DNA of 64,000 nucleotides from Minisyncoccia bacterium (GTDB lineage Bacteria > Patescibacteriota > Minisyncoccia > SW-4-49-11): contig JBIIRM010000005.1 of the NCBI GenBank assembly GCA_044341565.1, forward strand, positions 882 through 64,881, in the 5' to 3' direction. The notes under the pieces were generated by a model. It ran no database searches. It was given only the letters and a program-made list of their open reading frames with translations, and had not been told where the DNA came from. This document shows positions 5,943-25,401 of this stretch, piece after piece. Numbering within the stretch: position 1 is the stretch's first letter; the number at the start of each line of letters is the position of its first letter. The position numbers and the translations under genes are program-made.

Positions 5943-6142
5943 TATTTTTGGAAATAATTAATAATTAATTGTATGAATCCGATAATAGTAATTACTATCC
6001 CTACTCCAATCAAAATAGGAAAAATAATCTGAGCAATAAATTGAGCCACAAAACAAAATACCGCAAGTCCCAAACCTCCCCAGATTAACCATTCTGGCTT
6101 TGTTTGTCCTTGAGTTTTCTTACCTACAACTTTAATTTCCAT
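5942..6142 (-). CDS. Small membrane protein (hypothetical)
   Basis: 66-aa ORF with two hydrophobic helices; immediately follows the hydrolase gene on the same strand. Confidence 0.4.
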   Translation of the reverse strand: MEIKVVGKKTQGQTKPEWLIWGGLGLAVFCFVAQFIAQIIFPILIGVGIVITIIGFIQLIINYFQK

Positions 6143-6185
6143 ATATGATATTCCTTAACCTATACTCATTATAACATATGCTTAT

Positions 6186-6212
6186 AAAACCAAAAACCCC
6201 CACGAGGGGGGC
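6186..6212 (-). terminator. Rho-independent terminator (minus strand)
   Basis: The plus strand reads aaaaaccccc-acgag-gggggg. On the minus strand the GC stem is followed by a tttttggtttt run, downstream of the minus-strand gene 6285..6722. Confidence 0.6.
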
Positions 6213-8773: not shown

Positions 8774-9610
8774 ATGATTTCTTTCAAATTACACAATGGT
8801 TTTGATCGCCTCAAGATGTATAATGGATTCATGGGAGCTGTACATTTCTTCCAAGCTGGATTAATGTTATATATTTCTAAAGAATCTTTACTGCCTGTAT
8901 TTACCAATTATCTCAAATTTGATGCTACAAATCGTAGCGCTGTACCTATGCCAGTACAAGAAAAGTTATTTGATGTAAATATTGGACCAGCTGTTGCCCT
9001 ATTCTTATTATTATCAGCTATAGCCCATTTTATTACTATTTTACCAAGTGTATATCCTTGGTATATCAAAAATCTCAAGAAACATATTAATGTAATCCGA
9101 TGGTATGAATATGCTTTATCATCATCAATAATGATTGTAATAATAGGATTATTGGTTGGTATTTATGATTTCGCTACTCTCTTATTACTCTTTGGACTTA
9201 ATGCGAGTATGAATCTTTTTGGTCTTGTGATGGAGCAAATCAATCAAGATAGAAAAGAAGTAAATTGGCTTCCATATATATTTGGATGTATTGCCGGTAT
9301 AATCCCTTGGATTGTTATTTTCCTTCATTTCCAAGGAGCTCTTGCTAATGCCGATGTAGATGTGCCAAGTTTTGTATATTGGATTGTATTTTCATTATTT
9401 GCAGTATTTAATATATTTGCAATCAATATGTTCCTTCAATACAAAAAAGTTGGGCCTTGGAAATCATATGTATTTGGAGAAAAAATCTATGTTTTTCTAT
9501 CCCTATTTGCAAAAACATTATTAGCTTGGCAAGTATGGTCAGGAACTCTTAGGGGTCGTGAGAATGATGTATCAGCTGCTATTAACCATATTATTCACTT
9601 AATTTCATAG
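8774..9610 (+). CDS. Heliorhodopsin (7-TM retinal-binding photoreceptor, inverted topology family)
   Basis: 278-aa 7-TM protein with blocks matching the heliorhodopsin family: IRWYEYALSSSIMIVIIG, FGLNASMNLFGL, FGCIAGIIPWIVIF, VPSFVYWIVFSLFAVFNIFAINMFLQYKK, and the helix-7 Lys in SLFAKTLLAWQVWSGTL (the Schiff-base Lys position). Confidence 0.7.
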   Translation: MISFKLHNGFDRLKMYNGFMGAVHFFQAGLMLYISKESLLPVFTNYLKFDATNRSAVPMPVQEKLFDVNIGPAVALFLLLSAIAHFITILPSVYPWYIKNLKKHINVIRWYEYALSSSIMIVIIGLLVGIYDFATLLLLFGLNASMNLFGLVMEQINQDRKEVNWLPYIFGCIAGIIPWIVIFLHFQGALANADVDVPSFVYWIVFSLFAVFNIFAINMFLQYKKVGPWKSYVFGEKIYVFLSLFAKTLLAWQVWSGTLRGRENDVSAAINHIIHLIS

Positions 9611-9662: not shown

Positions 9663-9674
9663 AATATCGAGGAC

Positions 9675-9926
9675 TTATTCTCGAGGCTTAGCAGGTTGAA
9701 TAGAGATTTCTCTTTCTAGAAGAGATGCTCCATCTAACTGTTGAATTGCTTTTTCAGCTTCTTCTTCTGTGGCAAATTCGACGAAACCGTAACCTTTGCT
9801 ACGTCCCTCTTCTTTGTCAAAGATGATTTTTGCTGAGACTACAGTCCCAACAGTCTCAAAAAGAGATTGTAAGTCCTGGTTTGTTGCTTTGTACGCAATA
9901 TTTCGTACAAATAGATTCTTGCTCAT
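9675..9926 (-). CDS. RNA-binding protein, single RRM domain
   Basis: RNP-2 (LFVRNI) and RNP-1 (KGYGFVEF) motifs in an 83-aa protein. Confidence 0.85.
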   Translation of the reverse strand: MSKNLFVRNIAYKATNQDLQSLFETVGTVVSAKIIFDKEEGRSKGYGFVEFATEEEAEKAIQQLDGASLLEREISIQPAKPRE

Positions 9927-10067
9927 AATTTACATTGTTGAAGAAAGATTGCTCTTTCTTGCTAATACTTTATCTCCTGTCGACCTGCCTAAGCCCAGGA
10001 TTAATATCAATATACCATATATGTCAAAATTTGTACAATATTATCCACAATTTAGAGAGTAATATAC

Positions 10068-11012
10068 TTATCCTACCAAGATATCTTGTAAATCTGAAAC
10101 TAAATCAAGAGCCTCTACTTTTGGTCTTTGGAAAGCATTTCTTCCCATAATAGTTCCAAAAGCTCCTCCTTCGCGAATAGCTTTTATCTCATCTTCTAAA
10201 GTTTCAGCATTGGTAAAATCTCCACCTGAATGTATAACAATACGATGTCCATTATAGGCAGCCTTCATAACAAGAGCTATTCTATTTTTGAGAGTTTTAG
10301 TATTAAGATTATCATAAATACCAAGTTTTTTATTAGATTCAAGTCCATATCCCTCAAGTGGAAGCTTTACCTTGATAATATGAGCCCCCAAACTAGCTCC
10401 AAGTGCTACAGCATAAGCAATAATATCTACTGCCCTCTCTTGTCCTTTAATCAATCCCTCTCCTCGAGGATATATCCATAATACGGTAATGAGTCCGGCT
10501 TTTCGGGCATCAACTATTAATTCTTTCGCTTGTTGTTCTATTTGATTACTATGTATTGATCCTGGATAAAGGGTAAACCCTACTGCCTCACATCCTAGTC
10601 TCACAGCATCTCCCACCCAAGAATGAATTGAGGGGCGGGGATTTTTCTCATCTGGTATCATTAAATTATGAGAATTTACTTTGAGAATAGTAGGTACATT
10701 ATGCCGAGCCAATACTTCAAAACCTCGCTCGAGGGAACCCAATGGAGCTGCAAAAGCATTAAATCCCCCATCTACAGCAAATTGTGCTTGCTCTAATGGG
10801 TCATACATAATAGGATTAGGTTCAAAGGCTCTTCCTGGTCCATGTTCAAGGATTTGATCAATAGGAAGTATCATCAATTTACCCGTACCTCCAATTCTTC
10901 CGTGATTCAGGATACGTAATAGATTTTTTTGTTGAGCTGGGGTATTAGTGCTACGATACCAAGAAATAATTTCCTCCATACGAGCTTTATGTTTTGGTTT
11001 TGTGGAAGGCAT
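10068..11012 (-). CDS. Class I fructose-bisphosphate aldolase, DhnA/FbaB (archaeal-type) family
   Basis: About 310 aa in a TIM-barrel aldolase layout, with ILPIDQ...HG and the Schiff-base lysine block IIKVKLP characteristic of the DhnA-type class I FBA / ADH synthase family. Confidence 0.65.
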   Translation of the reverse strand: MPSTKPKHKARMEEIISWYRSTNTPAQQKNLLRILNHGRIGGTGKLMILPIDQILEHGPGRAFEPNPIMYDPLEQAQFAVDGGFNAFAAPLGSLERGFEVLARHNVPTILKVNSHNLMIPDEKNPRPSIHSWVGDAVRLGCEAVGFTLYPGSIHSNQIEQQAKELIVDARKAGLITVLWIYPRGEGLIKGQERAVDIIAYAVALGASLGAHIIKVKLPLEGYGLESNKKLGIYDNLNTKTLKNRIALVMKAAYNGHRIVIHSGGDFTNAETLEDEIKAIREGGAFGTIMGRNAFQRPKVEALDLVSDLQDILVG

Positions 11013-11022
11013 AAAAATAGTT

Positions 11023-11709
11023 TTAGATATGTTCTTTTGATATTACATTATTTTCACTATCTAAATTATATACCAAAATATCTCCAATAGCAAACTCTAC
11101 CCCCTCAATTTCATTATCGGATAAATGGTCGAGATATTTTAATATAACTCTCAAAGTATTACCATGTAGGGATAATATGATTCGCTCATTATCTTGTAAT
11201 GCTGAAATAATATGTCCCTCCAAATAAGGGATTACTCGCTTATAGGCATCATCAAGGCTTTCTGTGCGGGGCAATAATTCTTTAGAGATAGAAATATATT
11301 TAGGATCAAAATAGGCATTACGAGGATCATCTAATTCCAATTCTGCTGGTCTAGTACAATATCCTCGACGATAATTATGTAATTGCTCCCAAGATAATTC
11401 ATCCAAAATATCTACCTTTGATTTACCTTGTAATTTTCCATAATGCCTTTCATTAAGACGCCAGTCTCGAGTTGTTGGGATATTAGTCTGCCCCATTTCC
11501 TCTAAAATAATATCCAATGTTATGATAGCCCGCTTCAAAACAGAGGTGTATGCTCTATTGAATACCAATCCTTTGGTCTTAAGTTTTTGTCCCATTAATC
11601 GAGCCTCCTCCACACCCTGAAGAGTTAAATCAACATCTGTCCAACCTGAGAATAAATTTTGTTTATTCCATAAGCTTTGTCCATGCCTTATTAATACTAA
11701 TTTCTTCAT
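11023..11709 (-). CDS. gpmA: 2,3-bisphosphoglycerate-dependent phosphoglycerate mutase
   Basis: LVLIRHGQSLWNKQNLFSGWTDVDL signature. The likely start is MKKLVLI at 11709 (the track ORF extends to 11742). Its start overlaps the xth stop by 1 nt (TAATG). Confidence 0.85.
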   Translation of the reverse strand: MKKLVLIRHGQSLWNKQNLFSGWTDVDLTLQGVEEARLMGQKLKTKGLVFNRAYTSVLKRAIITLDIILEEMGQTNIPTTRDWRLNERHYGKLQGKSKVDILDELSWEQLHNYRRGYCTRPAELELDDPRNAYFDPKYISISKELLPRTESLDDAYKRVIPYLEGHIISALQDNERIILSLHGNTLRVILKYLDHLSDNEIEGVEFAIGDILVYNLDSENNVISKEHI

Positions 11710-12485
11710 TATTCTATATCTAATTCTAGTACTACTGGACAATGATCAGAACCATATACATCAGATAATATATAGGCGTCTTTTACTTTGTCTTTTAATA
11801 ATTCACTCACAAAAAAATAATCTATTCTCCACCCTACATTGCGGTCTCGAGCTCTAGTCTTCATATCCCACCACGTATATAATTCTGGCTTATCTGTTTT
11901 GAGCCTCAGAGTATCTGCGAACCCATATTCTTGAGTTAAGGTATCAAGCCAAGCTCGCTCTTCTGGTAGGAATCCTGAGGTTTTGAGATTGTCTTTTGGG
12001 CGAGCCAAATCTATTTCGGTATGAGCAGTATTCACGTCTCCCGTAATAATAATTTGCTTTGTGTGATAATCTATTCCTTTCAAGTATTGTAATAAAGCCT
12101 CATAGAATTTGAGTTTATAGCCAAGCCTCTCAACTCCAGAACCACCATTAGGAAAATAAATATTTATCAAAATAAATTTCTCATAAGTTGCAATTTGAAT
12201 TCTCCCCTCTTGATCAAATATATCATCGAGCTGAAATCCTGTTTGTATAGATATTGGCTCGGTTTTGGAATAAATAGCCACCCCACTATATCCCTTACGA
12301 ATACCTGATTCAAAATAAGAATTATACCCTGGAATATACAAAATATCATCAGTTAATTGCTCTCGATGAGATTTGGTCTCTTGCATACACAGAATATCTG
12401 GCTGATATTTTTCTAAGAAGGGCTGGAATAATTCCTTTCTTTGCAATGCCCGCAACCCATTTACATTCCACGATATTAATTTCAT
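11709..12485 (-). CDS. xth: Exodeoxyribonuclease III (AP endonuclease)
   Basis: MKLISWNVNGLRA...DILCMQETK N-terminus and the C-terminal SDHCPV motif of the ExoIII/APE1 family. Confidence 0.9.
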   Translation of the reverse strand: MKLISWNVNGLRALQRKELFQPFLEKYQPDILCMQETKSHREQLTDDILYIPGYNSYFESGIRKGYSGVAIYSKTEPISIQTGFQLDDIFDQEGRIQIATYEKFILINIYFPNGGSGVERLGYKLKFYEALLQYLKGIDYHTKQIIITGDVNTAHTEIDLARPKDNLKTSGFLPEERAWLDTLTQEYGFADTLRLKTDKPELYTWWDMKTRARDRNVGWRIDYFFVSELLKDKVKDAYILSDVYGSDHCPVVLELDIE

Positions 12486-12540
12486 ATAATTTTATGACCT
12501 ATTGATACTATTGTATCATATAAATTAGATATTTAGAATG

Positions 12541-12596
12541 GGAGGGACGGAAGAGGATGTGCGTAAAGACAACCCTACAGTCGCCCAAAACTTTTA
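12541..12596. repeat. GC-rich element forming the left arm of an imperfect inverted repeat that flanks the RHH gene (partner at 13166..13219)
   Basis: gggagggacggaagagg ... cagtcgcccaaaactt is complementary to gggcgactg ... aagtttt ... ggaggctttcgtccctcc on the other side of the 12669..13097 gene. Confidence 0.4.
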
Positions 12597-12668
12597 TTCT
12601 TTGGTCACTAGCTATTGATAATATTAGAGAAATATGTTATATATCAAACGTTTCTATGGAGAATCATT

Positions 12669-13097
12669 ATGAATACTAACTTGGTAGAAATTACTCTTTT
12701 AATGAGACAATCTTTCTTTGAACTTCTAGAGCTTATTGAAGACAAGTATAAATTGACAAGGGCAGAAATAGTCCATATCTCTGTCGGTCTATATTCCAGG
12801 AATAGAATTGAATCAACAAAAAGAAATCGGTTAGCTTCAATAAGGCCTGATAATACTATTGTGAGAGTATATGAAGAAATTCCGAGTAATGACTTAACCG
12901 AATTAACTGAAATTATACTTTATGTACATCAATCTCTTGATAGTGCGCTACAAATACTTGCATATAGTGATAGAAAGACAAGGGCAGAAATAGTCCATGA
13001 ATCTGTACATCTATACGAAAAATATATGGCTGACTTAGCAAAAGGATATAGATTAGCTTCAATAAGGCCTGATAATTCTATTGAAACAATCTATTAA
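12669..13097 (+). CDS. Tandem-duplicated ribbon-helix-helix (RHH, Arc/MetJ/CopG-like) DNA-binding protein (single-chain dimer)
   Basis: Two ~60-aa repeats, each a beta-strand (LVEITLLM / LTEIILYV) followed by two helices ending in (L/K)TRAEIVH(I/E)SV.LY, then a repeated RLASIRPDN(T/S)I tail. The DNA shows an internal 33-nt near-identical repeat (12833..12868 and 13053..13088). The start is taken at MNTNLV (12669) rather than the track ORF start at 12615. Confidence 0.5.
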   Translation: MNTNLVEITLLMRQSFFELLELIEDKYKLTRAEIVHISVGLYSRNRIESTKRNRLASIRPDNTIVRVYEEIPSNDLTELTEIILYVHQSLDSALQILAYSDRKTRAEIVHESVHLYEKYMADLAKGYRLASIRPDNSIETIY

Positions 13098-13107
13098 GAT
13101 GCATACC

Positions 13108-13139
13108 CCCTCGTCTCCGGACGAGGGCTTTTTCTTTTT
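13108..13139 (+). terminator. Rho-independent terminator after the RHH gene
   Basis: ccctcgtc-tccg-gacgaggg: an 8-bp GC stem followed by ctttttcttttt. Confidence 0.7.
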
Positions 13140-13216
13140 CATAAAATCTATTTTTGTTATAAACTCAAATACTATGGGCGACTGAGAGGTCGTGAAGTTT
13201 TGTCTCCCTTTGGAGG
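13129..13216 (+). repeat. Repeat family R1, copy a (second copy at 14481..14569)
   Basis: A shared 30-mer tttttctttttcataaaatctatttttgtt, then actgagaggt[c/g]gtg[a/g]agttttgtctccctttggagg, about 85% identical between the copies. Each copy is followed by distinct GC-rich hairpins. Confidence 0.6.
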
Positions 13217-13295
13217 CTTTCGTCCCTCCTATATTTATTTAGGCGGGGGAGTCCCCGTAGGGGGAGGGTGGATTTGTTTTTAACATATTAAATAA

Positions 13296-13420
13296 TTAAA
13301 ACTCTATCCACCTCCGACCTGACGGCCACCTCCTCCAAAGGAGGACATGATAGAATTAGAACCCTCCGCTACAAAAACAATGTTGGCGGGGTGTCGCCAA
13401 ATCTACGAATGTTATACTAA
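13296..13420 (+). repeat. Repeat family R2, copy 1 (structured leader-like element upstream of a small membrane-protein gene)
   Basis: ttaaaactctatccacc + hairpin tcctcc-aaa-ggagga + cattagaacc.tcc.ctacaaaa + hairpin ggcg-gggtgt-cgcc. Copy 2 at 13892..14030 carries compensatory substitutions in both hairpins (ccccctccgaaggggg, tcggcgggggcgccga). Confidence 0.55.
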
Positions 13421-13466
13421 AAAATCAATTTATGGTATAATCATTGTAGATAATAACTATAAAAGT

Positions 13467-13883
13467 ATGGAATTAAATAAATGGACTTTTTGGTGGATAT
13501 TATTAGTATATTTTGTTGTATCTCTTATTTTATTTATATCAACTTCTACTGGATTGAATCAGTTAGGTTGGCTTTTAATCCCTGGACTTATATATGCTAT
13601 AATTTTGCCAGTAGTATTACTAATAAATGTAAATATTGTTACAAAGGCAATAAAAATATCATGGGTATCTTTAATGCTTTTGTTAATAATTCAATCTATT
13701 ACACTGATTGCAAATTTAATTTATGATAGGTTACTCGAGACTAATGGTTTGGAGTATTGTCAAGGTAGTGAAATTTGTTCTAAGACATATTTACTTGAAA
13801 TATCTATTTGGATATATATTTTAGTATTGATTGCATTTATTATTCAAGTTTATTATAGTGGTTTTAAGAAAGTTTCTGAATAG
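13467..13883 (+). CDS. Small multi-TM membrane protein (hypothetical)
   Basis: MELNKWTFWWILLVYFVV...; 139 aa with four hydrophobic helices. The track ORF starts at 13347 but that extension runs through the conserved non-coding R2 element, so the ATG at 13467 is preferred. Confidence 0.4.
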   Translation: MELNKWTFWWILLVYFVVSLILFISTSTGLNQLGWLLIPGLIYAIILPVVLLINVNIVTKAIKISWVSLMLLLIIQSITLIANLIYDRLLETNGLEYCQGSEICSKTYLLEISIWIYILVLIAFIIQVYYSGFKKVSE

Positions 13884-13891
13884 AAATCTAT

Positions 13892-14030
13892 TTAAAACTC
13901 TATATCCACCCCCGCCTTTCAGGCTTCCCCCTCCGAAGGGGGACAGAATAACATTAGAACCATCCACTACAAAATAAATTTCGGCGGGGGCGCCGACTCT
14001 ACAAAATATTTGTTTCTGAATAAATTTATG
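13892..14030 (+). repeat. Repeat family R2, copy 2
   Basis: See copy 1. It occupies the same position relative to the downstream gene 14065..14367 and includes a TATAAT-like box close to the ATG. Confidence 0.55.
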
Positions 14031-14064
14031 CTATGATTATTTTGGATAATAGTTATAATTCTAT

Positions 14065-14367
14065 ATGATAAAAAACAATTTCAGAGTTTTCTTTGTATTA
14101 GTTATAGTATCTTTATTACCTATAATATTTAACTGGATAATTGTATGTATGTTACTTTTAATTCTTGATAGTTTTTATAATGAATATGTAACTTTTTTGG
14201 GATTAAATAGTCCAAATAAGAAAACCCTAAAATTTATCATGACTTGGGGAATGTCAATTTTAGTACCTTTATTTGCACTATTTATACAGACTTATCTAGA
14301 ATTTGAGCCTATAGTTAGATTGTGTTCATTAGGTTGGTGTGGACTACCATCTTGGGTTAATATATAA
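14065..14367 (+). CDS. Small multi-TM membrane protein (hypothetical)
   Basis: 100 aa and hydrophobic; preceded by R2 copy 2. Confidence 0.4.
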   Translation: MIKNNFRVFFVLVIVSLLPIIFNWIIVCMLLLILDSFYNEYVTFLGLNSPNKKTLKFIMTWGMSILVPLFALFIQTYLEFEPIVRLCSLGWCGLPSWVNI

Positions 14368-14425
14368 CATAATCTTGATAAGGTCGATACCTAGATAATT
14401 AAGTAATCTATATTTCAATTAAAAA

Positions 14426-14569
14426 TTAAAGCTCTATCCACCCCACTGGTTCACCTCCCCAACCCTTGGTCACTCAGGATTTTTTCTTTTTCATAAAATC
14501 TATTTTTGTTGTAAAACCCAACCACTACGAGCAACTGAGAGGTGGTGGAGTTTTGTCTCCCTTTGGAGG
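14426..14569 (+). repeat. R2 partial copy 3 (14426..14442) fused to R1 copy b (14481..14569)
   Basis: ttaaagctctatccacc followed by the R1 30-mer and the actgagagg...ctccctttggagg block. More GC hairpins (ccctcaagagggg, cctgacgg) follow up to the hisS stop. Confidence 0.55.
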
Positions 14570-14640
14570 GAGGGTGTGGACTGAGCTTAGATTCCCCTCA
14601 AGAGGGGTGTCAGGCTTACCTGACGGGGTGGAGGTAATTT

Positions 14641-15957
14641 TTACTCAATCTCCCCCAAATCCTCAAGCAATATAATTTCCTGCTCTCCTGATTTCATATT
14701 TTTGACCAATACTTCACCTGTCTTTGTCTCATCAGCTCCGAAGATTATAGCTTTAGTATAGCCTTTGCGATTAGCATATTGCAAAGCTTTTTTGAAATTG
14801 GTGATTTCTGGATATAGGTCAAAGGCTATTCCCTGTTCATCTCGGAGGGCAATAATTGACTTGATATCATCCTCCACAGTATCCTCATTTAATAAGAATA
14901 CTCCTATTTTGGTATTATCTCCATATTGAATTTCTTTGAACCAATCTTGTTCTCTCAAAATTCCAAATAGACGACTTACTCCAATAGAAGCCCCAAATCC
15001 GGTAATAGGTGTATCAATATAATGTGACACAAGATTATCATATCGCCCTCCTGAACAAATACTTCCGAAAGACTCTAACCCCTCAAGGAAACTCTCGAAT
15101 ACTGTTCCCGTATAATAATCCTGCCCTCTTACTATAGAGATGTCTATAACATAGCTTTTAACGTGAAATAACTCTAAATATTTAACAAATTCTTCAAGCT
15201 CTTGTACTCCTTCTGAAAAAAGAGATCCTGGTTTATTACACTGATTTTCTTTTAGTCTATTAATCACATCTTGATTAGTTCCTCCCCTATTTATGACTGG
15301 TGCTGCTGGTAAAATTGAAAGTATAGCTACTGTTTGTTCATGATTTAATACAATTTCTCTTAATGTTCTTGACCACTCTTTATAGGGAAGTTTAGAAATT
15401 TTATCTAAATGCCGAAGCACGGCTGATTTATTTTCAACCTTATATTCTTCCAATAATCCCGCAAGAATTTTACGATTACTGATTTTAAATGTAATAGCTG
15501 GTAATTCTAATATATCAACAGTATTCTGAATTACTGATAATATCTCAGCCTCAGCCAATCTACTATTATTACCCAATATATCAATATCAGCCTGATATAA
15601 TTCTCTATATCGACCCTTTTGTGGTTTTTCAGCTCGCCAGGATTTGCCAATTTGATATATTTTTGCGGGTAATACCATATTACGATTATGCTCAGCTATG
15701 TAGCGAGCTAATGGTACAGTCAAATCAAAGCGTAAACTCAAATCCCTATCTCCTTTTTGAAAACGATATATTTCTTTATCTAATTCTCCCCCAGCCTTAG
15801 CGAGAATAACCTCCGAATATCCAATAGAAGCAGTCTCTATAGGGGTGAATCCCGCATGTTCATATTCTTCTCGAATAGTATCTAATATATGATTAAATTT
15901 CACCTGCTCTTCAGGAGTATATTCAATAAATCCAGATGGTAATTGGAATTTTGGCAT
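14641..15957 (-). CDS. hisS: Histidine--tRNA ligase
   Basis: Class II aaRS motifs plus the HisRS-specific N-terminal block (FQLPSGFIEYTPEE...ETASIGYSEVILAKAGGELDKEIYRFQ) and a C-terminal anticodon-binding domain. Confidence 0.9.
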   Translation of the reverse strand: MPKFQLPSGFIEYTPEEQVKFNHILDTIREEYEHAGFTPIETASIGYSEVILAKAGGELDKEIYRFQKGDRDLSLRFDLTVPLARYIAEHNRNMVLPAKIYQIGKSWRAEKPQKGRYRELYQADIDILGNNSRLAEAEILSVIQNTVDILELPAITFKISNRKILAGLLEEYKVENKSAVLRHLDKISKLPYKEWSRTLREIVLNHEQTVAILSILPAAPVINRGGTNQDVINRLKENQCNKPGSLFSEGVQELEEFVKYLELFHVKSYVIDISIVRGQDYYTGTVFESFLEGLESFGSICSGGRYDNLVSHYIDTPITGFGASIGVSRLFGILREQDWFKEIQYGDNTKIGVFLLNEDTVEDDIKSIIALRDEQGIAFDLYPEITNFKKALQYANRKGYTKAIIFGADETKTGEVLVKNMKSGEQEIILLEDLGEIE

Positions 15958-16424: not shown

Positions 16425-16478
16425 ATATATATTCTTAAACTATTATATATACTAGCATATTATTAGTATCAATACAAT

Positions 16479-17588
16479 CTAAAAAGCCGAGGTAGGTGGA
16501 GTGAAATTTGCTGTATAACGAGCAATACCTTTTGTAATTCTCAATTCATCAATATAGATACCAGCAGGAGCTGACCACCCCGTTCCAGACCAAGGACTCA
16601 ATCCAATCAGTAAAGGATCAGTAGTTATAACCGTAGGAGTTGCATTAACAGTTGTTTGCAAGATACCATTTAAATAGAATCTATGTGTATCACCTGATCT
16701 ACAGATAGCTACATGATACCACGTATTAGGTGACGGGGTAGGCTGTCCTACATCAGCCCCCGTAAATGTAGTCCCCGATGAGTTGGTAGGATAATATCTC
16801 AGATCGTTCCCACCGTAGTACATAAGTGCAAACTCTGTGTTAATATAGGGATTACCCTTGGTAACAACCATCCCCCCAGAAGATCCAGTTGTCAGGTACA
16901 TAAATAGCTCAATTGTATAATCAACATTTCCAATTTGTAGCGCTGTACTACTTGGTATGGATAAATAGGAATTACTATTTGGAATATATCCACTAGCCCC
17001 ACCAAATCTACTTTGGGTCGTACTAGTTTGCATACCATTAAATGCTGTAGATATATGTGCATTATTACTTCTATCAGTAAAGGTTGTACCTCCATTTGCC
17101 CCATCAAAATTAAATAGCAAAGAAACATTCTCAAAATAAGGATCACTTGGTCCTGTACTGGTTACAACATTCCCCCCACTTCCACTTATTGCTATTGTTG
17201 ATCCTAATTCTGCTTCTGATGCTCTTACTCTTACTCTACTATCTACTATTCCTATCTTATAACTTATTCCACTTGGATCTTCTGGTATACCTGCTACATA
17301 ATCTGGTACCAATACTCCTAGATTTACACATCCTGTCGTATTATTATTTATACATATATCTTGCTCTGTCTCTGTTATACCTACTGGATATCCTTGATTA
17401 TCTATTAGATATTGTTCTAATGCTTTATATAGCGTATTTACTTCTGATCTTCTCTCTGCATTCCTTGCTTGGGCTAATTGTTTATTTGGGTTTATGGCTA
17501 TCAATACTATTGCTGCCAATATCCCTATTGCAGCTATTACCAGAAGTACCTCTAATAATGTAAAACCTTTTTGTTTTTCTCCTCTCAT
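16479..17588 (-). CDS. Type IV pilin-like protein with C-terminal LamG/concanavalin-A-like lectin domain
   Basis: N-terminus KGFTLLEVLLVIAAIGILAAIVLIAINP (prepilin cleavage/methylation motif). The C-terminal ~200 aa has the LamG_3-like pattern (TFTDRSNNAHI...WYHVAICRSGDTHRFYLNG...IYIDELRITKG). The plus-strand ORF 17147..17563 is an antisense artifact. Confidence 0.75.
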   Translation of the reverse strand: MRGEKQKGFTLLEVLLVIAAIGILAAIVLIAINPNKQLAQARNAERRSEVNTLYKALEQYLIDNQGYPVGITETEQDICINNNTTGCVNLGVLVPDYVAGIPEDPSGISYKIGIVDSRVRVRASEAELGSTIAISGSGGNVVTSTGPSDPYFENVSLLFNFDGANGGTTFTDRSNNAHISTAFNGMQTSTTQSRFGGASGYIPNSNSYLSIPSSTALQIGNVDYTIELFMYLTTGSSGGMVVTKGNPYINTEFALMYYGGNDLRYYPTNSSGTTFTGADVGQPTPSPNTWYHVAICRSGDTHRFYLNGILQTTVNATPTVITTDPLLIGLSPWSGTGWSAPAGIYIDELRITKGIARYTANFTPPTSAF

Positions 17589-17619
17589 AAGAGTTGTTTT
17601 TATTTATAATTATATTTTT

Positions 17620-17652
17620 ATGATATCACAAAATTATTTTTTGTGATATCAT
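17620..17652. promoter_or_regulatory. Perfect 14-bp inverted repeat (atgatatcacaaaa-ttatt-ttttgtgatatcat) 32 nt upstream of the pilin-LamG start codon; candidate operator
   Basis: An exact palindrome in the pilin promoter region. The stem is AT-rich and is not followed by a T-run on the strand of the upstream gene, so an operator role is favoured over a terminator. Confidence 0.45.
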
Positions 17653-17655
17653 ATT

Positions 17656-18159
17656 TTATTTTATTAATTCTTTTTTACATCTTCGATAATCAGGACAATA
17701 TTGAGCAACAATATTCCAAAATCTCACAGAATGATTCATCTCTACCAAATGAGCAAGCTCATGTATTACCACATAATCCATCAATTCAGACTCCAGAAAC
17801 ATAAGCCGATAAGAAAAATTGAGATTACGCTTACTGGAACAACTACCCCAACGAGTAGTAGTATGCCGTATGCTCAAGCGATTATAGCTAAGCCCCATCA
17901 CCTCTGACCAATATACTACTCTAGCGGTAATAATAATTCTCGCCCTATCCCTATGTTCTTTGTAATGTTGCTCAGTATATATATTCTTAGGAATAGTGGC
18001 TAATTTTTCTCGTATCCAATCCCGCTTAGACTCTACAAATTGCTTGGCAATATATTGGGGCACTCTTGGGGGAATAGTGACAATAACTTCACGATTCGCA
18101 TTGATACGAATACTCACTCGTTTTGTTTTATTGGATTTTTTAATCGTATATGCTACCAT
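17656..18159 (-). CDS. YgjP/DUF45-family (SprT-like) zinc metallohydrolase
   Basis: HEXXH motif in DYVVIHELAHLVEMNHSVRFWNIV, and a WGSCS block upstream, as in DUF45/M48-like proteins. Confidence 0.75.
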   Translation of the reverse strand: MVAYTIKKSNKTKRVSIRINANREVIVTIPPRVPQYIAKQFVESKRDWIREKLATIPKNIYTEQHYKEHRDRARIIITARVVYWSEVMGLSYNRLSIRHTTTRWGSCSSKRNLNFSYRLMFLESELMDYVVIHELAHLVEMNHSVRFWNIVAQYCPDYRRCKKELIK

Positions 18160-18905: not shown

Positions 18906-18980
18906 TCCGCGATAGCTCAGCGGTAGAGCAGTCGGCTGTTAACCGATTGGTCGTAGGTTCGAATCCTACTCGCGGAGCCA
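18906..18980 (+). tRNA. tRNA-Asn (anticodon GTT), CCA encoded
   Basis: Cloverleaf TCCGCGA-TA-GCTC-AGCGGTA-GAGC-A-GTCGG-CTGTTAA-CCGAT-TGGTC-GTAGG-TTCGAAT-CCTAC-TCGCGGA-G-CCA. Confidence 0.85.
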
Positions 18981-19100: not shown

Positions 19101-20405
19101 TTATATATACTTCTGAGCCTCTTCCCATTCCTCCTCAGATAAATTCCCTTTGATTCCTAGCGCTTTTATAGGTGAGGAAATAAATCTTTGCATCAATGCT
19201 ATCAATTCATTATAGGAAGTTGTCCTAATATTATTATAATAGTCATCGGGAGTATATATAATCCCCTCAGGATATTGTAATAAAGATCCATAAAACTCAT
19301 TCAAGGCATAAATACTAGAATAATATTGCTTAGAAGCACTTATTTGTGCTATTTTGAATCTTTCAATATCTTCTATTGTAATATATTGCGTAAAGTTATG
19401 TAATACGGTATTAATTATCTGTAGTGATTCAATAAGAGACTCTTTATTTATAGTATATGTTATTGCAATATTATAAGAACCTCCATAGTCATAATAATCA
19501 GTATTAACCCAATATATTAACCCCCTTTTCACTCTGAGTTCCTGTAATAAAATTGATGTCCAGAAATTTCCTAATGCTGTACGTAATAAAGCAAGTGAAG
19601 CACAATCTTTATAGTAAAAAGACCCTTGAAGTCCATAATTAAATACACCTTTTATATTGTCTTCTGAAGAATTGAGTACTATATTTGTAGAAGATACATT
19701 TTCTATTAGTGTGTTAGTAGACAAGGAATGAGAAATGCCATCTTCCTCTAAGATTATTGCCGAGATATCAGGAGAGATAATAACTAAATGAGCCTTATCT
19801 TTGGTATAATGCAATTGTGCATACTGGATATATTGCTCATACGAAATATTGTCTAAATCTCCAAATACATCTTGTGCTAAAGCTGATCCAAAGAAAAGAT
19901 TATCAAATGTACGTCGTTCTATATCAGTTTCTGAATCTTGTTTTTCTTGAGCAATGATTTTCTTTTCTTTATCAAATATCTCTTGAGATACTGATTCTTG
20001 ATCAAAATTTTTCAATAATAATTGAAGAGACGATATTAGATGAGCTGGATCTTGTATATGAGAATAATTGGTTAAATATGCTGCTGTGTAAGCACTAGCA
20101 CTAATACCATACTCTTCTAAAGTTTTTGCCTTAGTATATTCATCATCTCCTCCTGCCCAAAGATGTTCAAAAAAATGAGATAACCCTTGAGCATTAGCAT
20201 CATCAAGTGCATATCCTCGTGCAAACCAAAGAGATGCAGAAGACATAATTTGTTGCTTATCTTCTATTACTGTTGTCTTTATTCCTTGATATATCCCCTG
20301 TTTAATATTGGACATAATAATGTTGTTTAAACTATACTCAGTATATATAAAATAATGAGGGAAGGCAACTTGTACCTTCCCTGTTTGGAACATGGAGCTA
20401 AACAA
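19101..20405 (-). CDS. M16-family (pitrilysin/insulinase-like) zinc peptidase
   Basis: Inverted zinc motif HxxEH in GLSHFFEHLWAGG, with the overall M16 N-domain layout. The true start may be the internal Met (MSNIKQG, ~20315). Confidence 0.65.
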   Translation of the reverse strand: MFSSMFQTGKVQVAFPHYFIYTEYSLNNIIMSNIKQGIYQGIKTTVIEDKQQIMSSASLWFARGYALDDANAQGLSHFFEHLWAGGDDEYTKAKTLEEYGISASAYTAAYLTNYSHIQDPAHLISSLQLLLKNFDQESVSQEIFDKEKKIIAQEKQDSETDIERRTFDNLFFGSALAQDVFGDLDNISYEQYIQYAQLHYTKDKAHLVIISPDISAIILEEDGISHSLSTNTLIENVSSTNIVLNSSEDNIKGVFNYGLQGSFYYKDCASLALLRTALGNFWTSILLQELRVKRGLIYWVNTDYYDYGGSYNIAITYTINKESLIESLQIINTVLHNFTQYITIEDIERFKIAQISASKQYYSSIYALNEFYGSLLQYPEGIIYTPDDYYNNIRTTSYNELIALMQRFISSPIKALGIKGNLSEEEWEEAQKYI

Positions 20406-20418
20406 CTAATGTTGAGGC

Positions 20419-20517
20419 TTACTTGCCACCACCACCAGGTCGAGTAGGAGCGGGACCGCCGCCGCCAGTACCTTTCGTTCCACTTCCAGGGTTACCATGA
20501 CGATTGTTGTTGCCCAT
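20419..20517 (-). CDS. Glycine-rich micro-ORF 2 (32 aa: MGNNNRHGNPGSGTKGTGGGGPAPTRPGGGGK)
   Basis: ATG preceded by cggagaattacctca (GGAG about 11 nt upstream), an upstream context nearly identical to that of micro-ORF 1. GC-rich. The alternative reading is the 100-aa track ORF 20419..20721 in the same frame. Confidence 0.3.
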   Translation of the reverse strand: MGNNNRHGNPGSGTKGTGGGGPAPTRPGGGGK

Positions 20518-20569
20518 TGAGGTAATTCTCCGAAGTACTAAATGGATTAGACCTTGATACAGTGAGGGA

Positions 20570-20659
20570 TCATTTCCCCCGGGTACCCGAGCCACCACCA
20601 TGTCCACCGCCATTGCCGGTGCCGCCACCGGTTTTGGTTCCACCTGTTTGAGCTGCCAT
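20570..20659 (-). CDS. Glycine-rich micro-ORF 1 (29 aa: MAAQTGGTKTGGGTGNGGGHGGGSGTRGK)
   Basis: First ATG downstream of the predicted promoter, preceded by cggagattcatttca (GGAG). It has its own TGA stop and is in a different frame from the 100-aa track ORF. Confidence 0.3.
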   Translation of the reverse strand: MAAQTGGTKTGGGTGNGGGHGGGSGTRGK

Positions 20660-20705
20660 TGAAATGAATCTCCGAGCGAGGGTGTAATGAGACGGAAATG
20701 TCTCG

Positions 20706-20752
20706 CAATAAAATCTATCATGATTATTAATATTTGTCAATAGTTGTCAATT
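20706..20752 (-). promoter_or_regulatory. Strong sigma70-like promoter (two phased TTGACA boxes) driving the glycine-rich micro-ORFs and M16 peptidase
   Basis: The minus strand reads ATTGACAActATTGACAAatattaataatcatgaTAGATT. TTGACA has a 17-nt spacer to TAGATT; the second TTGACA has 17 nt to ATAATC. Confidence 0.45.
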
Positions 20753-20794
20753 ATATTAATTCTTCCTGAAAACCTCCTAGATTACCCACTCAAA

Positions 20795-20824
20795 GGTTCG
20801 AACATTGTCCAACTCGCGGAGCCA
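20795..20824 (+). repeat. Degenerate direct repeat of the tRNA-Asn 3' end (att-like remnant)
   Basis: ggttcgaa-cattgtcca-actcgcggagcca versus tRNA-Asn ggttcgaa-tcct-actcgcggagcca: exact matches of 8 and 13 nt, 1.8 kb downstream of the tRNA. A weaker third copy lies at 23282..23310 (tctaactcccgaagcc). Confidence 0.55.
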
Positions 20825-20895
20825 ACTCCCCTTAAACAGCTTAATCGTAATATTCTCAATTAATGCTATACTATATGTATATTTAACTCTATTAT

Positions 20896-22443
20896 ATGAA
20901 AGTTAGTAGAAAAATCTTTTTCATAGCCCCAGGGATTATATTGTTATGTGTAGTGATATTAAGTGGGTATATAATAATGAATAGTAATACTCAATCAGCT
21001 ACCTCTCCTAATACACCACCCTACTTAACGGAAGTAAGGGATTATACATTACATAATACTATTTCATTTATAAAACCAATTGATTATACAAAATACCAGG
21101 ATAATCAGGAAGATCTAGATATTGCTATGCAAAAAACCTATCTCGAGGGAGGAATAACTTTTGATGAATTTTTAGAACTGAATAGTATGGTAAATTTAAT
21201 AGATAATAATCTTAAAGATATAGAAGCAAATCTATATTACAACTCAGAAACTGTGCTATCTGGAGTTATTTTGAGCTCTAATAAAGAAGATTTTTATACA
21301 AATGCACGCCAAAAACTACAAGAGTTGAATATTAATTCCCCAGATCTCACCTCTCTCAAAATCACTGAGATATATTTTCGGACCACCTCTCAAGATTCTA
21401 GAGCTTTAGAGTTAGCTTATTTATTCAATATCAACACTGATGTTGAATTTAATAAAAATCTTAAAATAAAACTAGATAATGCTATTAACTCTAATAATTA
21501 CTCCGATTTAGAAAATACAGGATTAAATATATCTAGCCCTTATAATACCGATAATTATGGACTCAAAAGATTAAAAAGGGAGAATGAAGAAAAGACTAAG
21601 AGATTAGCACAAATTGAGTCCTGTATACTTGATTTATATATTCAAGAAGCCAATTTAAAGATTAGATTAAATCAACCTACATGGAGCACCAAAAAAGACC
21701 AATATACAGAAACTATATCTAATCTAAGTAATAAAATTGGATCAATAAACTCACAAGGAGAAAGGACTATAATAGGATGTGAACAATATCATTTCCACAA
21801 TATCCAAATCAGATTCACAAAACCACTCTCTATTAGTGATATTCAAGAGATTGAGAATACCTTACCATTAATTTATCCCAAAAAATATATAGCGGAATTA
21901 GATCCAGACTATAGGACTAACACTACTAGTGCAGAAATAGACATATTAAATGCTCAATTTGATGACTATGGACCTGAAGACTATACTTATCGTGATATAG
22001 ATTTAATAACCACCACATCTACTGAAACTTCACAGTTATTTGCTTTATTTAATCCTGGGAAAAATTGGGAAGATATGAAAAATAATTATTATCAAAATCG
22101 TACATACTTAAATATCCCTAAAGATAGTGTCGAGAAATATAGAAATGACCAGGATACAATCTATTACTTTACTAACAACCCTCAGTATACTAATTTAAGT
22201 ACTCAGTATATTGATGGTGTTACTCTCTTTACCACAACCCTAGACGATCCATATCTATGCTTACAACAATTATTAACATCAGATAACCACTCATCTTGTA
22301 GTGTATTCTCTTTAAATCAAAGCCAGAAAAAGCTCTTACAATCCTACATAAAATTGATTGAAATTACCCCTGTAACACCACATACCCACACAGACTTATA
22401 TAAATTTGAGGTAAGCCCAACTTCTTCTTTTTGGGTAAAGTAA
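20896..22443 (+). CDS. Hypothetical secreted/membrane-anchored protein (515 aa)
   Basis: N-terminal TM/signal anchor, then an Asn/Thr/Tyr-rich body with no recognizable domain. Confidence 0.5.
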   Translation: MKVSRKIFFIAPGIILLCVVILSGYIIMNSNTQSATSPNTPPYLTEVRDYTLHNTISFIKPIDYTKYQDNQEDLDIAMQKTYLEGGITFDEFLELNSMVNLIDNNLKDIEANLYYNSETVLSGVILSSNKEDFYTNARQKLQELNINSPDLTSLKITEIYFRTTSQDSRALELAYLFNINTDVEFNKNLKIKLDNAINSNNYSDLENTGLNISSPYNTDNYGLKRLKRENEEKTKRLAQIESCILDLYIQEANLKIRLNQPTWSTKKDQYTETISNLSNKIGSINSQGERTIIGCEQYHFHNIQIRFTKPLSISDIQEIENTLPLIYPKKYIAELDPDYRTNTTSAEIDILNAQFDDYGPEDYTYRDIDLITTTSTETSQLFALFNPGKNWEDMKNNYYQNRTYLNIPKDSVEKYRNDQDTIYYFTNNPQYTNLSTQYIDGVTLFTTTLDDPYLCLQQLLTSDNHSSCSVFSLNQSQKKLLQSYIKLIEITPVTPHTHTDLYKFEVSPTSSFWVK

Positions 22444-22455
22444 TCTCAAGACTAG

Positions 22456-22698
22456 CTACCTCATCAAAAGCCAAATGTCTATTGAGGTAATAATTATTGC
22501 AGTAATTATGGCAAGTGCGACTATACTAGATCCAATATCTTTAATTCTTTTGATATGAATATTCCACTTAGGTTCCATAAAATCACAAATTAACTCTATG
22601 GTAGTATTAATCAATTCTAAAATAATAATTGAAATACCAAATAATATCGTTTGCTTTATTAATTCCCAACTTTCCAAAAAAACTTCTAGTCCAACCAA
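22456..22698 (-). CDS. Small membrane protein (hypothetical)
   Basis: 80 aa with two hydrophobic helices. Confidence 0.35.
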   Translation of the reverse strand: MVGLEVFLESWELIKQTILFGISIIILELINTTIELICDFMEPKWNIHIKRIKDIGSSIVALAIITAIIITSIDIWLLMR

Positions 22699-22786
22699 TA
22701 CCAGAGTAGTAATAATTGTTTGTATGATTAGGTTATTATCTCTAGAGAAAGCATATGATAAGCCTTCAACTCATAATTGATATTTT

Positions 22787-23110
22787 TTAAGCAGTTTCAT
22801 AGGGTAGATTATCTTTTACCCAATGCATCATCCCGACAGCACTATTGATTACATAAAAACCTTGTTTCTCCATAAGTAAAGAAGCTATTTGAGAGCGTCC
22901 ACCACTTTTACAGTAGATAATATAGGTTTTCGATGGATCTAATCTTTTTATTTCCTGAACAATATCAGACCTACTAATATCAAAATTTACCGCTCCCGCT
23001 ATATGCCCTTGATTAAACTCCTCTGAAGTCCGAACATCAAGTAATATTTCATTCTCTTGTAAATTGTGAGATTTAAATTGTAACTCTTGGGTTGTAGATA
23101 TTATATTCAT
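22787..23110 (-). CDS. Rhodanese-domain sulfurtransferase (single domain)
   Basis: LLDVRTSEEFNQGHIAGAVNFD...YIIYCKSGGRSQ, with the active-site Cys loop CKSGGR. Confidence 0.85.
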   Translation of the reverse strand: MNIISTTQELQFKSHNLQENEILLDVRTSEEFNQGHIAGAVNFDISRSDIVQEIKRLDPSKTYIIYCKSGGRSQIASLLMEKQGFYVINSAVGMMHWVKDNLPYETA

Positions 23111-23362
23111 GCTATTATAGTAAGCTAGACATATACTTTACTACATATATCTATCCATTTCAATTTGTAATCACTTCTCTCTTTTCAAATTTATATACTT
23201 GTTAGCCATATAATACTTTAGTAGAGAACGTGTATTCTACTATACTAAAGTAAAAGTGGATTAAGCACTGCTGTCTACCACTCAAACATCGTCTAACTCC
23301 CGAAGCCTAGATGATGTGTGCAACGTATTAATACAAATCTAATTACCAAATTATTGTATTTA

Positions 23363-24091: not shown

Positions 24092-24330
24092 ATTATTTTT
24101 ATGATTCTATTGTAATTATACACATTTATATATATTTTATCTACTTATAAAATTTATCTCCTCTCAAAACTATAGTGAGCCCCCTTTAGGGTAATTAGTA
24201 CTCTCTACCTCTCATTTTTATTATTGATTTTGAGAGAGTATGATGAGAAAAACGTAAGAATAAAGAATCCCCCCACTTAGGTGAGAGGATTGTTGGAATT
24301 AGAGTTTACTTATCTTTCGTAGAGATTAAC

Positions 24331-25302: not shown

Positions 25303-25349
25303 TATACAGAAATATATCTATTCTAGGATATGATACTTCTATCCTTCAA

Positions 25350-25382
25350 AGAAAAATCCCTCCAGCTGAACCAGAGGGATTG
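25350..25382 (-). terminator. Rho-independent terminator downstream of the ADO gene (minus strand)
   Basis: Plus strand aatccctc-cagctgaacca-gagggatt preceded by gaaaaa, i.e. stem plus T-run on the minus strand. Confidence 0.6.
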
Positions 25383-25401
25383 AATTAGATTGAATTGTAG
25401 A

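Follow-up and report, generated by a model that had tools for sequence, protein, structure and literature searches.

Structured miniature inverted-repeat transposable elements (MITEs) of bacteria, among them the Correia, BOX, RUP and ERIC elements, insert beside genes, can supply promoters or terminators and are modular in build, as in the boxA-boxB-boxC arrangement. In Neisseria, the minimal mobile elements and intergenic mosaic elements are variable cassettes that lie between conserved housekeeping genes and are exchanged by homologous recombination. Bacteria of the candidate phyla radiation (CPR, Patescibacteria) have very small genomes, for which 'streamlined' is the usual description, and we found no description in the literature of repeat families of the repetitive extragenic palindrome (REP), bacterial interspersed mosaic element (BIME) or MITE type in this group. 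Of the two REP superfamilies, one is defined by an unpaired GTAG that adjoins a GC-rich palindrome (PMC3733652), and whalefall-1, a candidate non-coding RNA known only from a whale-fall metagenome, has been rated 'certainly an RNA' and not a cis-regulatory one (PMC2864571). In this study, we analysed a 64,000-nt stretch of a Paceibacteria (CPR) chromosome (the window; assembly GCA_044341565.1, contig JBIIRM010000005.1), in which the genes xth (11709-12485, minus strand) and hisS (14641-15957, minus strand) enclose three small genes, one for a putative ribbon-helix-helix (RHH)-like protein and two for small membrane proteins (TM1 and TM2), embedded in recurring GC-rich hairpin elements. We think it probable that these elements belong to dispersed, modular palindromic repeat families which conserve structure and which here border exchangeable small-gene cassettes.

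The central unit, which we call X (X' when inverted), is about 41 nt long and consists of TGTC, a first hairpin (CYYCCU-UYGG-AGGRRG), a variable second hairpin and then GGNGGTGGA. When a degenerate X pattern was scanned against one genome per GTDB species, at least 118 DNA blocks were matched, mostly in metagenome-assembled genomes (MAGs) of Paceibacteria, Parcubacteria and Minisyncoccia, and a covariance model built from 96 distinct copies detected 261 X copies, frequently with nested insertions, in 714 kb of pre-selected blocks. Among the matches listed, to which the figures of this sentence refer, X is present in dozens of blocks per genome in related MAGs, 163 of 179 strict matches (91%) lie outside open reading frames (ORFs) of at least 100 aa, such ORFs making up 81% of the sampled DNA, and in 24 of 32 close pairs the X units converge as an inverted doublet, 22-64 nt apart. 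X is a repeat family that is intergenic and usually arranged as inverted doublets with an AT-rich spacer in the middle; in many genomes its neighbours are unrelated housekeeping genes in either orientation, and further intergenic sites of relatives hold it in both orientations, for example positions 520-628 of locus L002 and 6051-6187 of locus L004 (L numbers denote individual loci). A search for a candidate resembling REP-associated tyrosine transposases (RAYT) among genes with X on both sides returned TM1 of the window, the RHH-like gene of L002 and otherwise mostly housekeeping genes. Among the matches listed there are also several MAGs labelled Saprospiraceae, the labels being those of the MAG bins. 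The contigs so labelled (L008, L009, L015, L023, L076 and L088) come from Bacteroidota bins, have a GC content of 0.36-0.46 and hold X singly or as inverted doublets, in one case with a flanking biotin carboxylase gene; these copies may reflect either a true cross-phylum distribution or a binning error.

Both hairpins of X covary. The two variable pairs of hairpin 1 in 101 distinct copies are CT/AG in 46, CC/GG in 26 and TC/GA in 22, which means that 94 of the copies carry one of three Watson–Crick solutions where the search pattern permitted all 16 combinations, and hairpin 2 has independent variants of its own (GCCT/AGGC vs GTCT/AGAC, GGCAC/GTGCC vs GGTAC/GTACC and TGCC/GGCA vs TGTC/GACA). 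RNAalifold predicts both hairpins, with compensatory changes in six of nine pairs. When some 100 distinct copies are scored against the named structure, 94.9% of the cells form pairs compared with 81.6% in column shuffles, and 143 cells are changed on both sides compared with 48.5 in shuffles, a figure as high being obtained in none of 500 shuffles; pairing was 55-70% when, as a control, the partner was slid by one to three columns. A preliminary description of this DNA had proposed that the hairpins are preserved by compensatory change, and the modelling of aligned copies bears this out, such that we take the covariation to be real at the level of the family. A doublet usually joins two arms that differ in subtype and whose second hairpins are unable to pair with each other, and therefore it appears to be the local hairpins rather than arm-to-arm pairing that are conserved.

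In several related genomes, a longer conserved unit surrounds the X doublet and is closed by terminal inverted repeats (TGTAYRAGATGAG..ATCGTMGACAA). A set of 15 such elements of 233-337 nt was assembled from these genomes, and the aligned copies have conserved arms in addition to the terminal inverted repeats. Perfect 5-bp duplications flank 5 of the 15 elements and none of 210 mismatched left/right control pairs, and duplications matching at four or more of the five positions flank 8 of the 15 compared with 7 of the 210 control pairs. In the gap between bcp and ygjP, L004 and L073 carry an X-doublet element with both terminal inverted repeats, while in L002 and L006 this gap is short and lacks the element. 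The X-doublet elements of these relatives are bona fide MITEs with target-site duplications; the X copies of the window may be remnants of such elements or a different composite. The bcp-ygjP interval itself looks like a second variable slot: the two genes are directly adjacent in the close relatives L002 and L006, and in the window a gene for a 369-aa type IV pilin-like protein, with an N-terminal methylation motif and a Laminin_G_3/ConA-like domain, lies between them (16464-17685).

Within the xth-hisS segment of the window, the two repeats named in the preliminary description (R1 and R2), the inverted repeat bracketing the RHH-like gene and the individual hairpins were all recovered. The R1 copies, which are both on the plus strand (13129-13216 and 14481-14569), are 88.8% identical across 89 nt (BLAST E = 2e-20) and form a pair of direct repeats around a 1,352-nt insert that contains TM1 and TM2. 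The R2 copies, on the minus strand at 13296-13406 and 13892-14004, show 76% identity across 90 nt (13302-13391 vs 13900-13989), and a partial third copy at 14421-14442 shows 91-95% identity over 19-22 nt. The bracketing inverted repeat is weak and comprises two collinear arms, 12569-12587/13175-13193 (79%) and 12538-12553/13217-13232 (88%). The hairpins cggggg-agt-ccccg, tcctcc-aaa-ggagga and ggcg-gggtgt-cgcc are located at 13245-13258, 13330-13344 and 13386-13399, respectively, and their variants in R2 copy 2 at 13928-13943 and 13981-13996. They stand out from an AT-rich background, as had been noted: repeat-bearing segments reach a GC content of 0.42-0.48, the window as a whole has 0.34 and the TM1 and TM2 genes about 0.25. 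An independent assembly (L001, Logan SRR27335585) is 100% identical to window positions 9669-13684, and for this reason R1 copy 1 and R2 copy 1 are not assembly artefacts; this support covers the first copies of R1 and R2, the assembled sequence ending inside TM1.

Both repeats can be broken down into smaller modules. Read on the plus strand, R1 is composed of a T-run/AT-rich stretch, an inverted copy of a second hairpin module, W, and the 5' half of X, and R2 of X'-V'-U', in which U and V are further modules. In R1 copy 1, the conserved AT-rich stretch occupies 13129-13165, the inverted and degenerate W (GGCGAC-TGAGAG-GTCG) 13175-13193 and the X 5' half 13198-13216. A metagenome scan with a 28-mer from the AT-rich part of R1 returned the single locus L130, and hence this part of R1 is lineage-specific. 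The X half leads into an inverted X doublet that resembles a REPIN (a REP doublet forming a long hairpin) or the core of a MITE (13198-13347), made up of a plus-strand X (13198-13275) that is split by a nested 31-nt hairpin insertion (13217-13247), an AT-rich spacer (13276-13306) and an intact minus-strand X (13307-13347); much of this doublet is base-for-base identical in L002 and L006. It folds with -59.3 kcal/mol (z = -3.7), and none of 200 shuffles was as stable; the corresponding z values are -0.1 for R1 alone, a marginal -1.5 to -2.1 for R2 alone and -1.1 for the segment at 14551-14640. The covariance model matched the window at 13307-13347 (minus strand, 60.4 bits), 13905-13945 (minus strand, 56.8 bits), 14554-14580 (plus strand, truncated, 25.1 bits) and 13221-13272 (plus strand, split by the insertion, 19.2 bits).

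On the minus strand, R2 copy 1 begins with U (GTAG-att-TGGCGACACCCCGCCAA and a T-run), which is followed by the GTAG-headed V (GTAGCGGAGGGTTCTAAT) and then by X. Copy 2 has the same U-V-X order, with X at 13905-13945 and the U hairpin TCGGCGCCCCCGCCGA following GTAG at 13996-13981, so that both U units of the window combine GTAG and a palindrome on the minus strand. With its T-run, U gives a minus-strand terminator-like hairpin in both R2 copies in a terminator scan (in copy 1 at 13400-13383), and in L022 and L004 a U unit stands directly 3' of the hisS stop codon. By inspection, U alone suits a terminator: the X doublet was tried as a classical intrinsic terminator and rejected, the T-run being 5' of X and the A-run 3' of X'. 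The second dispersed hairpin, W, has the consensus cGTAG-GGGCGAC-CTYTCA-GTCGCC-TGT, and GTAG is found no more than 12 nt upstream in 43 of 75 fuzzy matches. Each R1 holds W in inverted, degenerate form, and the GTAG tag has been lost from the window copy.

Further module remnants mark the two ends of the segment. Upstream of the RHH cassette (12538-12596), degenerate inverted remnants are seen, of which 12538-12553 equals inverted 13217-13232 and 12569-12587 holds the 3' half of a W hairpin (..ctacagtcgccc); the matching position of L002 (5707-5946) has intact X, X, U, W and V modules. Towards hisS, a truncated third R2/X' copy (14421-14457, plus strand) is fused to a decayed remnant of the ancestral RHH terminator at 14458-14480, and R1 copy 2 runs into a plus-strand block at 14551-14640 that consists of a truncated X (14554-14580) and an accessory module, Y, with the hairpins CCCCTCaagaGGGG and GTCAGGcttaCCTGAC and then GGGGTGGAGG with a T-run, adjoining the hisS stop codon at 14641. 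In L002 and L006, Y (14560-14640) is again found next to hisS, and in L127 it follows a TM1 homologue.

The preliminary description had named overlapping coding frames as something that might account for the elements entirely. A coding origin of R2 is rejected, since R2 copy 2 has an in-frame stop and no ATG and X is found in both orientations. The 89-aa ORF that crosses the modules in L002 likewise counts against a coding role through its low-complexity G/R-rich translation; it was called as a 'protein' across the hairpin array (L002 6615-6884, minus strand; also in L006) and is spurious. We also rejected, on inspection, a diversity-generating retroelement, as the R1 copies do not differ specifically at adenines and no reverse transcriptase was found near the locus, and, in addition, an array of the CRISPR (clustered regularly interspaced short palindromic repeat) or TIGR (tandem interspaced guide RNA) kind, as the units are inverted doublets and not regular direct arrays.

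The genes between these repeats come with their own signals. The RHH-like gene (12669-13097, plus strand, cargo of cassette 1) encodes 142 aa and is preceded by a promoter module, P, together with a 5' untranslated region (12615-12668, plus strand), in which a -35 box TTGATA (12615-12620), a 17-nt spacer ending in TGt, a -10 box TATATA (12638-12643) and a Shine–Dalgarno (SD) sequence GGAGA (12658-12662) can be recognized. This module is 85% identical to L002 5947-6000, and P-type modules (..CGCTAATTACCCTTGACAAAATTAG..TGnTATAT) lie 5' of genes for a 71-aa protein and a lipoprotein in L004, L022 and L130. The terminator scan placed an intrinsic terminator, T (CCCTCGTCTCCGGACGAGGG and a T-run), at 13105-13136 (plus strand), and in L004, L022 and L130 this hairpin type is found at the end of the 71-aa and lipoprotein cassettes. 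Cassette 2 (13429-13883, plus strand) has an extended -10 element TGgTATAAT at 13433-13441 and TM1 (13467-13883, 138 aa, about four transmembrane segments), and cassette 3 (14025-14367, plus strand) has TGcTATGAT at 14029-14037 and TM2 (14065-14367, 100 aa, about three transmembrane segments). The motif AATTTATGnTATAAT constitutes the extended -10 promoter of TM2 and of the TM1 homologues in L126, L127 and L078, 25-30 nt before the ATG. It exists in two variants, and the TM2 variant is that of the TM1 homologues in L127 and L078, while the sequence that precedes it varies, being X'-V'-U' in the window and L126 and an X doublet with an inverted W in L127 and L078. The promoter-bearing unit has been joined to unrelated cargo. 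Some units, U especially, may double as terminators, and R2 units may deliver outward promoters.

That the segment is accessory, as had been proposed, is seen when syntenic gaps are compared: the cargo of the xth-hisS slot varies and its borders stay constant. The window has the RHH-like gene, TM1 and TM2; in L002 and L006 the RHH-like gene stands alone, with GC-rich hairpins over the next 480 nt or so; L004 has a 71-aa gene and the RHH-like gene; L022 (Ca. Paceibacterota P_PACE2) a 109-aa lipoprotein gene; L130 a 71-aa cassette and a lipoprotein cassette in tandem; and L125 and L126 a TM1 homologue only. The small cargo proteins of the relatives are an acidic protein of 71-73 aa (L004 2847-3062 and L130 8643-8864) and a 109-aa lipoprotein with the lipobox ..LATAGC (L022 7176-7505 and L130 9142-9510). 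In L004, L022 and L130 the cassette unit reads TAAATCG..CGCTAATTACCC-TTGACA-17 nt-TGnTATAT (P), ORF, terminator, R1, X, spacer and CTCTATCC; the units are repeated in tandem with differing ORFs, the border junction CTCTATCC|TAAATCG is constant and a complete X' is present only after the last unit. The TM cassettes are ordered differently, with an R2 unit (X'-V-U), the extended -10 promoter and the ORF. Every cassette has a promoter of its own, those of the RHH-like, 71-aa and lipoprotein genes also have a terminator, and the module borders are common to them.

Housekeeping genes that flank the slot are 91-97% identical between the window and L002 and the RHH cassette 80%, and therefore the slot evolves, or is exchanged, faster than its surroundings. 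Window positions 14458-14572 match L002 6449-6562, where this sequence forms the native 3' flank of the RHH-like gene, at 87% identity, and in the window this gene is now closed by the terminator type of the 71-aa and lipoprotein cassettes. The simplest reading would be that the R1-flanked insert of 1,352 nt (about 13124-14476) with TM1 and TM2 lies between the RHH stop codon and the old terminator.

The cargo proteins are narrowly distributed. The halves of the 142-aa protein (about 71 aa each) are 46% identical, with nucleotide direct repeats spaced by 222 nt, which upholds the internal duplication put forward in the preliminary description; its idea of a single-chain RHH dimer is sustained in the duplication and weakly supported in the fold. 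Four homologues, all in the xth-hisS slot, were found among 5.8 billion clustered proteins, and a profile search of 1.84 billion representative proteins gave 3 matches only. Neither the entire protein nor one of its halves matched Pfam at E <= 5, sequence and profile searches of the PDB gave no meaningful match and no RHH chain, and the AlphaFold2 model is not interpretable (pLDDT 47, pTM 0.32). One of the three profile matches is a 115-aa protein, P0013 (E = 1.7e-4), which in turn matches the whole Pfam RHH_1 model at E = 7e-4 and 19.9 bits, just below the cut-off of 20.5, and a tandem RHH protein is on these grounds plausible. TM1, with seven homologues of 46-100% identity, is a real, narrowly distributed gene. 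Longer versions of it, a 178-aa ORF from 13347 and the 167-aa NCBI call, both read through the U hairpin and are probably too long, because the homologues have 138 aa and the promoter is conserved. TM2 has no homologue other than itself and is an ORFan. No similarity was found between TM1 and TM2, which are not paralogues; the earlier proposal of a cassette system expanding by duplication accordingly holds for the cassette-like organization and the modules upstream of the genes and fails for the genes themselves.

Based on these data, we propose that the modules X, W and U and the accessory modules V and Y assemble into mosaics in the manner of BIMEs and REPINs, and that R1 and R2 would be the repeated cassette borders around promoter-bearing cargo genes. 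In the RHH, 71-aa and lipoprotein cassettes the order is promoter, ORF, terminator, R1, X, spacer and X'. Homologous recombination between shared modules may account for the gain, loss and replacement of cassettes, and the hairpins may be kept since the fold, as single-stranded DNA or RNA, is recognized by a mobilizing enzyme or is acted on by RNA turnover or termination.

Several observations weigh against this proposal. The terminal inverted repeat of the MITEs has no match in the window with three mismatches allowed, and a mobilizing enzyme, whether a RAYT or an insertion sequence (IS) with matching ends, was not identified; no transposase was seen in the loci compared. No copies of R1, R2 or X were found elsewhere in the 64-kb window, either by BLAST or by the covariance model with filters off, and dispersal is shown for relatives only; the census of copies foreshadowed in the preliminary description is thus positive for relatives and confined to this one locus within the window. 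The three types of hairpin 1 could be a few ancestral subfamilies that have multiplied, in which case the number of independent compensatory events would be far below the cell counts, and the Saprospiraceae labels are those of MAG bins. The hairpins may be selected as RNA or as DNA. Finally, a 41-nt fold conserved in MAGs assigned to two phyla, with invariant loop and tail, would equally be expected of a functional RNA or of a site bound by a protein.

This last point leads to the alternative that survives best, although we regard it as unlikely, namely that X, whether single or doubled, functions as a structured RNA akin to whalefall-1, which would be transcribed from many loci and work with a conserved protein or RNA partner, its multiplicity stemming from function and not from mobility. 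The rating given to whalefall-1 speaks for this, and X resembles it in having, in the same order, a 5' GU.UC, a C/U-rich hairpin of 7 bp whose loop is UYGG, another hairpin and the 3' tail GGGUG.GGA; alignments to the full model (positions 1-56) bring the X hairpins and both tags into register, and one X variant shares the CUUG loop of the second hairpin. Both X hairpins covary, the loop and tail residues are invariant and X occurs in MAGs assigned to two phyla. The scores for whalefall-1 (RF01762) are sub-threshold, 21.5 bits in the window (R2 copy 2) and up to 25.8 bits in other loci with a cut-off of 37, and no match at gathering level was found in the window or in 18 repeat-rich loci; at gathering score, Rfam recognizes two tRNAs only in the whole window, and permissive E-values add no family but whalefall-1. 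The second hairpin of X is much shorter than that of whalefall-1, and X is a dispersed repeat, present in both orientations relative to its neighbours and mostly in inverted doublets, carried in elements with terminal inverted repeats and target-site duplications and tolerant of nested insertions and truncations (window 13217-13247 and 14554-14580). Moreover, several of the 'invariant' residues were fixed by the search pattern itself. The invariance of loops and tails, the spread over two phyla and the fact that no transposase was identified nevertheless keep a whalefall-1-like RNA alive as a minority alternative.

A more speculative combination, to which we give only a slim chance, would place X in a broad 'whalefall-1-like' superfamily of structured nucleic-acid motifs, common to CPR bacteria and Bacteroidota, and give X a function of its own, for example as a single-stranded DNA or RNA site for a recombination or processing enzyme. 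The xth-hisS slot would then represent integrase-independent cassette capture in ultra-small genomes, and the tandem RHH-like protein might control the shared cassette promoter through the inverted repeat CTAATT-N12-AATTAG.

We consider it very improbable that R1 and R2 control the RHH-like gene, TM1 and TM2 in cis, as leaders or attenuators of a riboswitch-like or SD-sequestering kind. R2 does sit 5' of both TM genes, and the hairpin of copy 1 (CCTCC-aaa-GGAGG-ACATG) resembles an anti-SD/SD pair with a start codon. However, the ATG of copy 1 is AGA in copy 2, where the frame has a stop codon, the modules of R1 and R2 flank unrelated housekeeping genes in either orientation, and no Rfam cis-regulatory family matches the window. 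Furthermore, R2 lies upstream of the TM1 and TM2 promoters and not in their leaders, because in the window, as in L126, L127 and L078, the conserved extended -10 promoter AATTTATGnTATAAT separates R2 from each of the start codons. The preliminary description had left leaders, small RNAs and MITE-like elements side by side; of these, the MITE-like option fits best and leaders drop out.

Equally little credit can be given to an integron-like array in which borders containing X' serve as attC-type single-stranded sites and a site-specific recombinase inserts the cassettes. The likeness consists in tandem small-ORF cassettes that are separated by imperfect palindromes, whose structure is conserved more than their sequence, and in the constant junction CTCTATCC|TAAATCG inside a palindromic element. 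No integrase, resolvase or transposase was found near the slot in the window by Pfam scans of window ORFs and slot neighbours (best 25 of 83 families listed), nor do the genes called in the syntenic loci L002 and L004 include an integrase or recombinase; in L006, a gene of the resolvase family (90 aa) is located about 4.6 kb from the slot. Unlike those of integrons, the cassettes all carry a consensus-like promoter of their own, and in several cases a terminator as well; no R''/R' (RYYYAAC/GTTRRRY) core was seen at the borders on inspection, GTTRRRY being absent at the border junction, and each border provides more than 100 nt of shared sequence, which is sufficient for homologous recombination.

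Hardly credible, finally, is an addiction or toxin–antitoxin-like module of the RHH-like protein, TM1 and TM2, with the repeats as operators or antisense RNAs, for which the weak RHH-like signature of the 142-aa protein, its small hydrophobic neighbours and the minus-strand terminator-like hairpins of R2 facing the 5' ends of the TM genes could be cited, but the RHH-like gene occurs without the TM genes in L002, L004 and L006 and TM1 without it in L125 and L126, which speaks against the addiction-like system suggested earlier, TM2 is an ORFan, each of the three genes has its own promoter, TM1 and TM2 (138 and 100 aa, three to four transmembrane segments) are unlike type I toxins, and the Pfam toxin and antitoxin families gave no match, the PADLOC defence library not having been searched.

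Some features outside the slot should be mentioned. In L002, a ~2-kb island (10220-12330) lies 3' of tRNA-Asn, and in it the 3' end region of the tRNA (..ggttcgaac..ctcccggagcc) is repeated three times; the small ORFs of the island have the same TTGACA-17-TGnTATAT promoter type as the cassettes, and it looks like the product of serial integration at the tRNA. The window has no such island, its tRNA-Asn (18906-18980) being followed directly by an M16 peptidase gene. In L127 (1410-1820), some 330 nt of inserted sequence apparently interrupt tRNA-Asn 3' of the anticodon-loop position (..gcagtcggctgt / insertion / taaccgattggtcgtaggttcgaatcc..) and may be an intron. Within about 20400-29940 of the window there are several GC-rich stretches, with up to 0.75 GC in 40-nt windows, and genes for a fatty-acid desaturase, a cyclopropane-fatty-acid-synthase-like protein and a DUF4336 protein, which are unusual for a CPR genome; a 306-nt GC-rich stretch at 29632-29937 has a doubtful ORF only. 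The window also has a match to a long-chain aldehyde decarbonylase and encodes a heliorhodopsin (8774-9610; Pfam E = 2.7e-94) that is conserved in L002 and L125.

If the repeats are indeed dispersed families that border exchangeable cassettes, some Paceibacteria would carry dozens of structured palindromic repeats per genome, including an active-looking MITE, and these repeats would mark a hot spot for the exchange of small accessory genes between strains. The exchanged cargo, comprising putative DNA-binding, membrane, lipoprotein and small acidic proteins, would offer episymbionts an uncomplicated way of varying their surface and their regulation. The orphan Rfam motif whalefall-1 would gain plausible relatives and, with them, a plausible nature as a dispersed repeat rather than a stand-alone non-coding RNA. 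For annotation, the modules are a source of spurious ORFs, such as the 89-aa call in L002, and of over-long starts, such as the 167-aa and 178-aa versions of TM1.

Taken together, the elements described here are a new example of a known element type and not a new regulatory system. With REPs, BIMEs and REPINs they have in common that they are short, GC-rich imperfect palindromes, multi-copy and intergenic in the related MAGs, arranged as inverted doublets and in mosaics with other motifs. W and U are GC-rich imperfect palindromes of 20-40 bp with an unpaired GTAG head, as in the GTAG-tagged REPs, and some units stand at gene 3' ends as terminator-like hairpins; as in REPINs, inverted units are joined by a short spacer into a long fold (24 of 32 pairs; z = -3.7 for the window doublet). 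X differs from REPs in having two hairpins and the conserved tags TGTC and GGTGGA in place of GTAG, in its CPR host and in that part of the family is carried in MITEs which make 5-bp target duplications. RAYT/IS200-type transposition is not known to produce such duplications. In this respect, the elements of the relatives are closer to the Correia elements of Neisseria, pneumococcal BOX and RUP and ERIC, with which they share a non-coding length of 230-340 nt, terminal inverted repeats, target-site duplications and a stable internal hairpin, although the sequences are unrelated, the window copies are without terminal inverted repeats and the X core occurs both inside and outside MITEs. For the slot as a whole, the nearest counterpart is found in the minimal mobile elements of Neisseria, which similarly involve a fixed slot, here xth-hisS, whole-gene cassettes that differ by strain, no dedicated recombinase and surrounding repeat mosaics. 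In the present case, however, the cassettes share border modules and a stereotyped promoter, and several of them a terminator, and with such shared borders and stereotyped signals tandem arrays can therefore build up.

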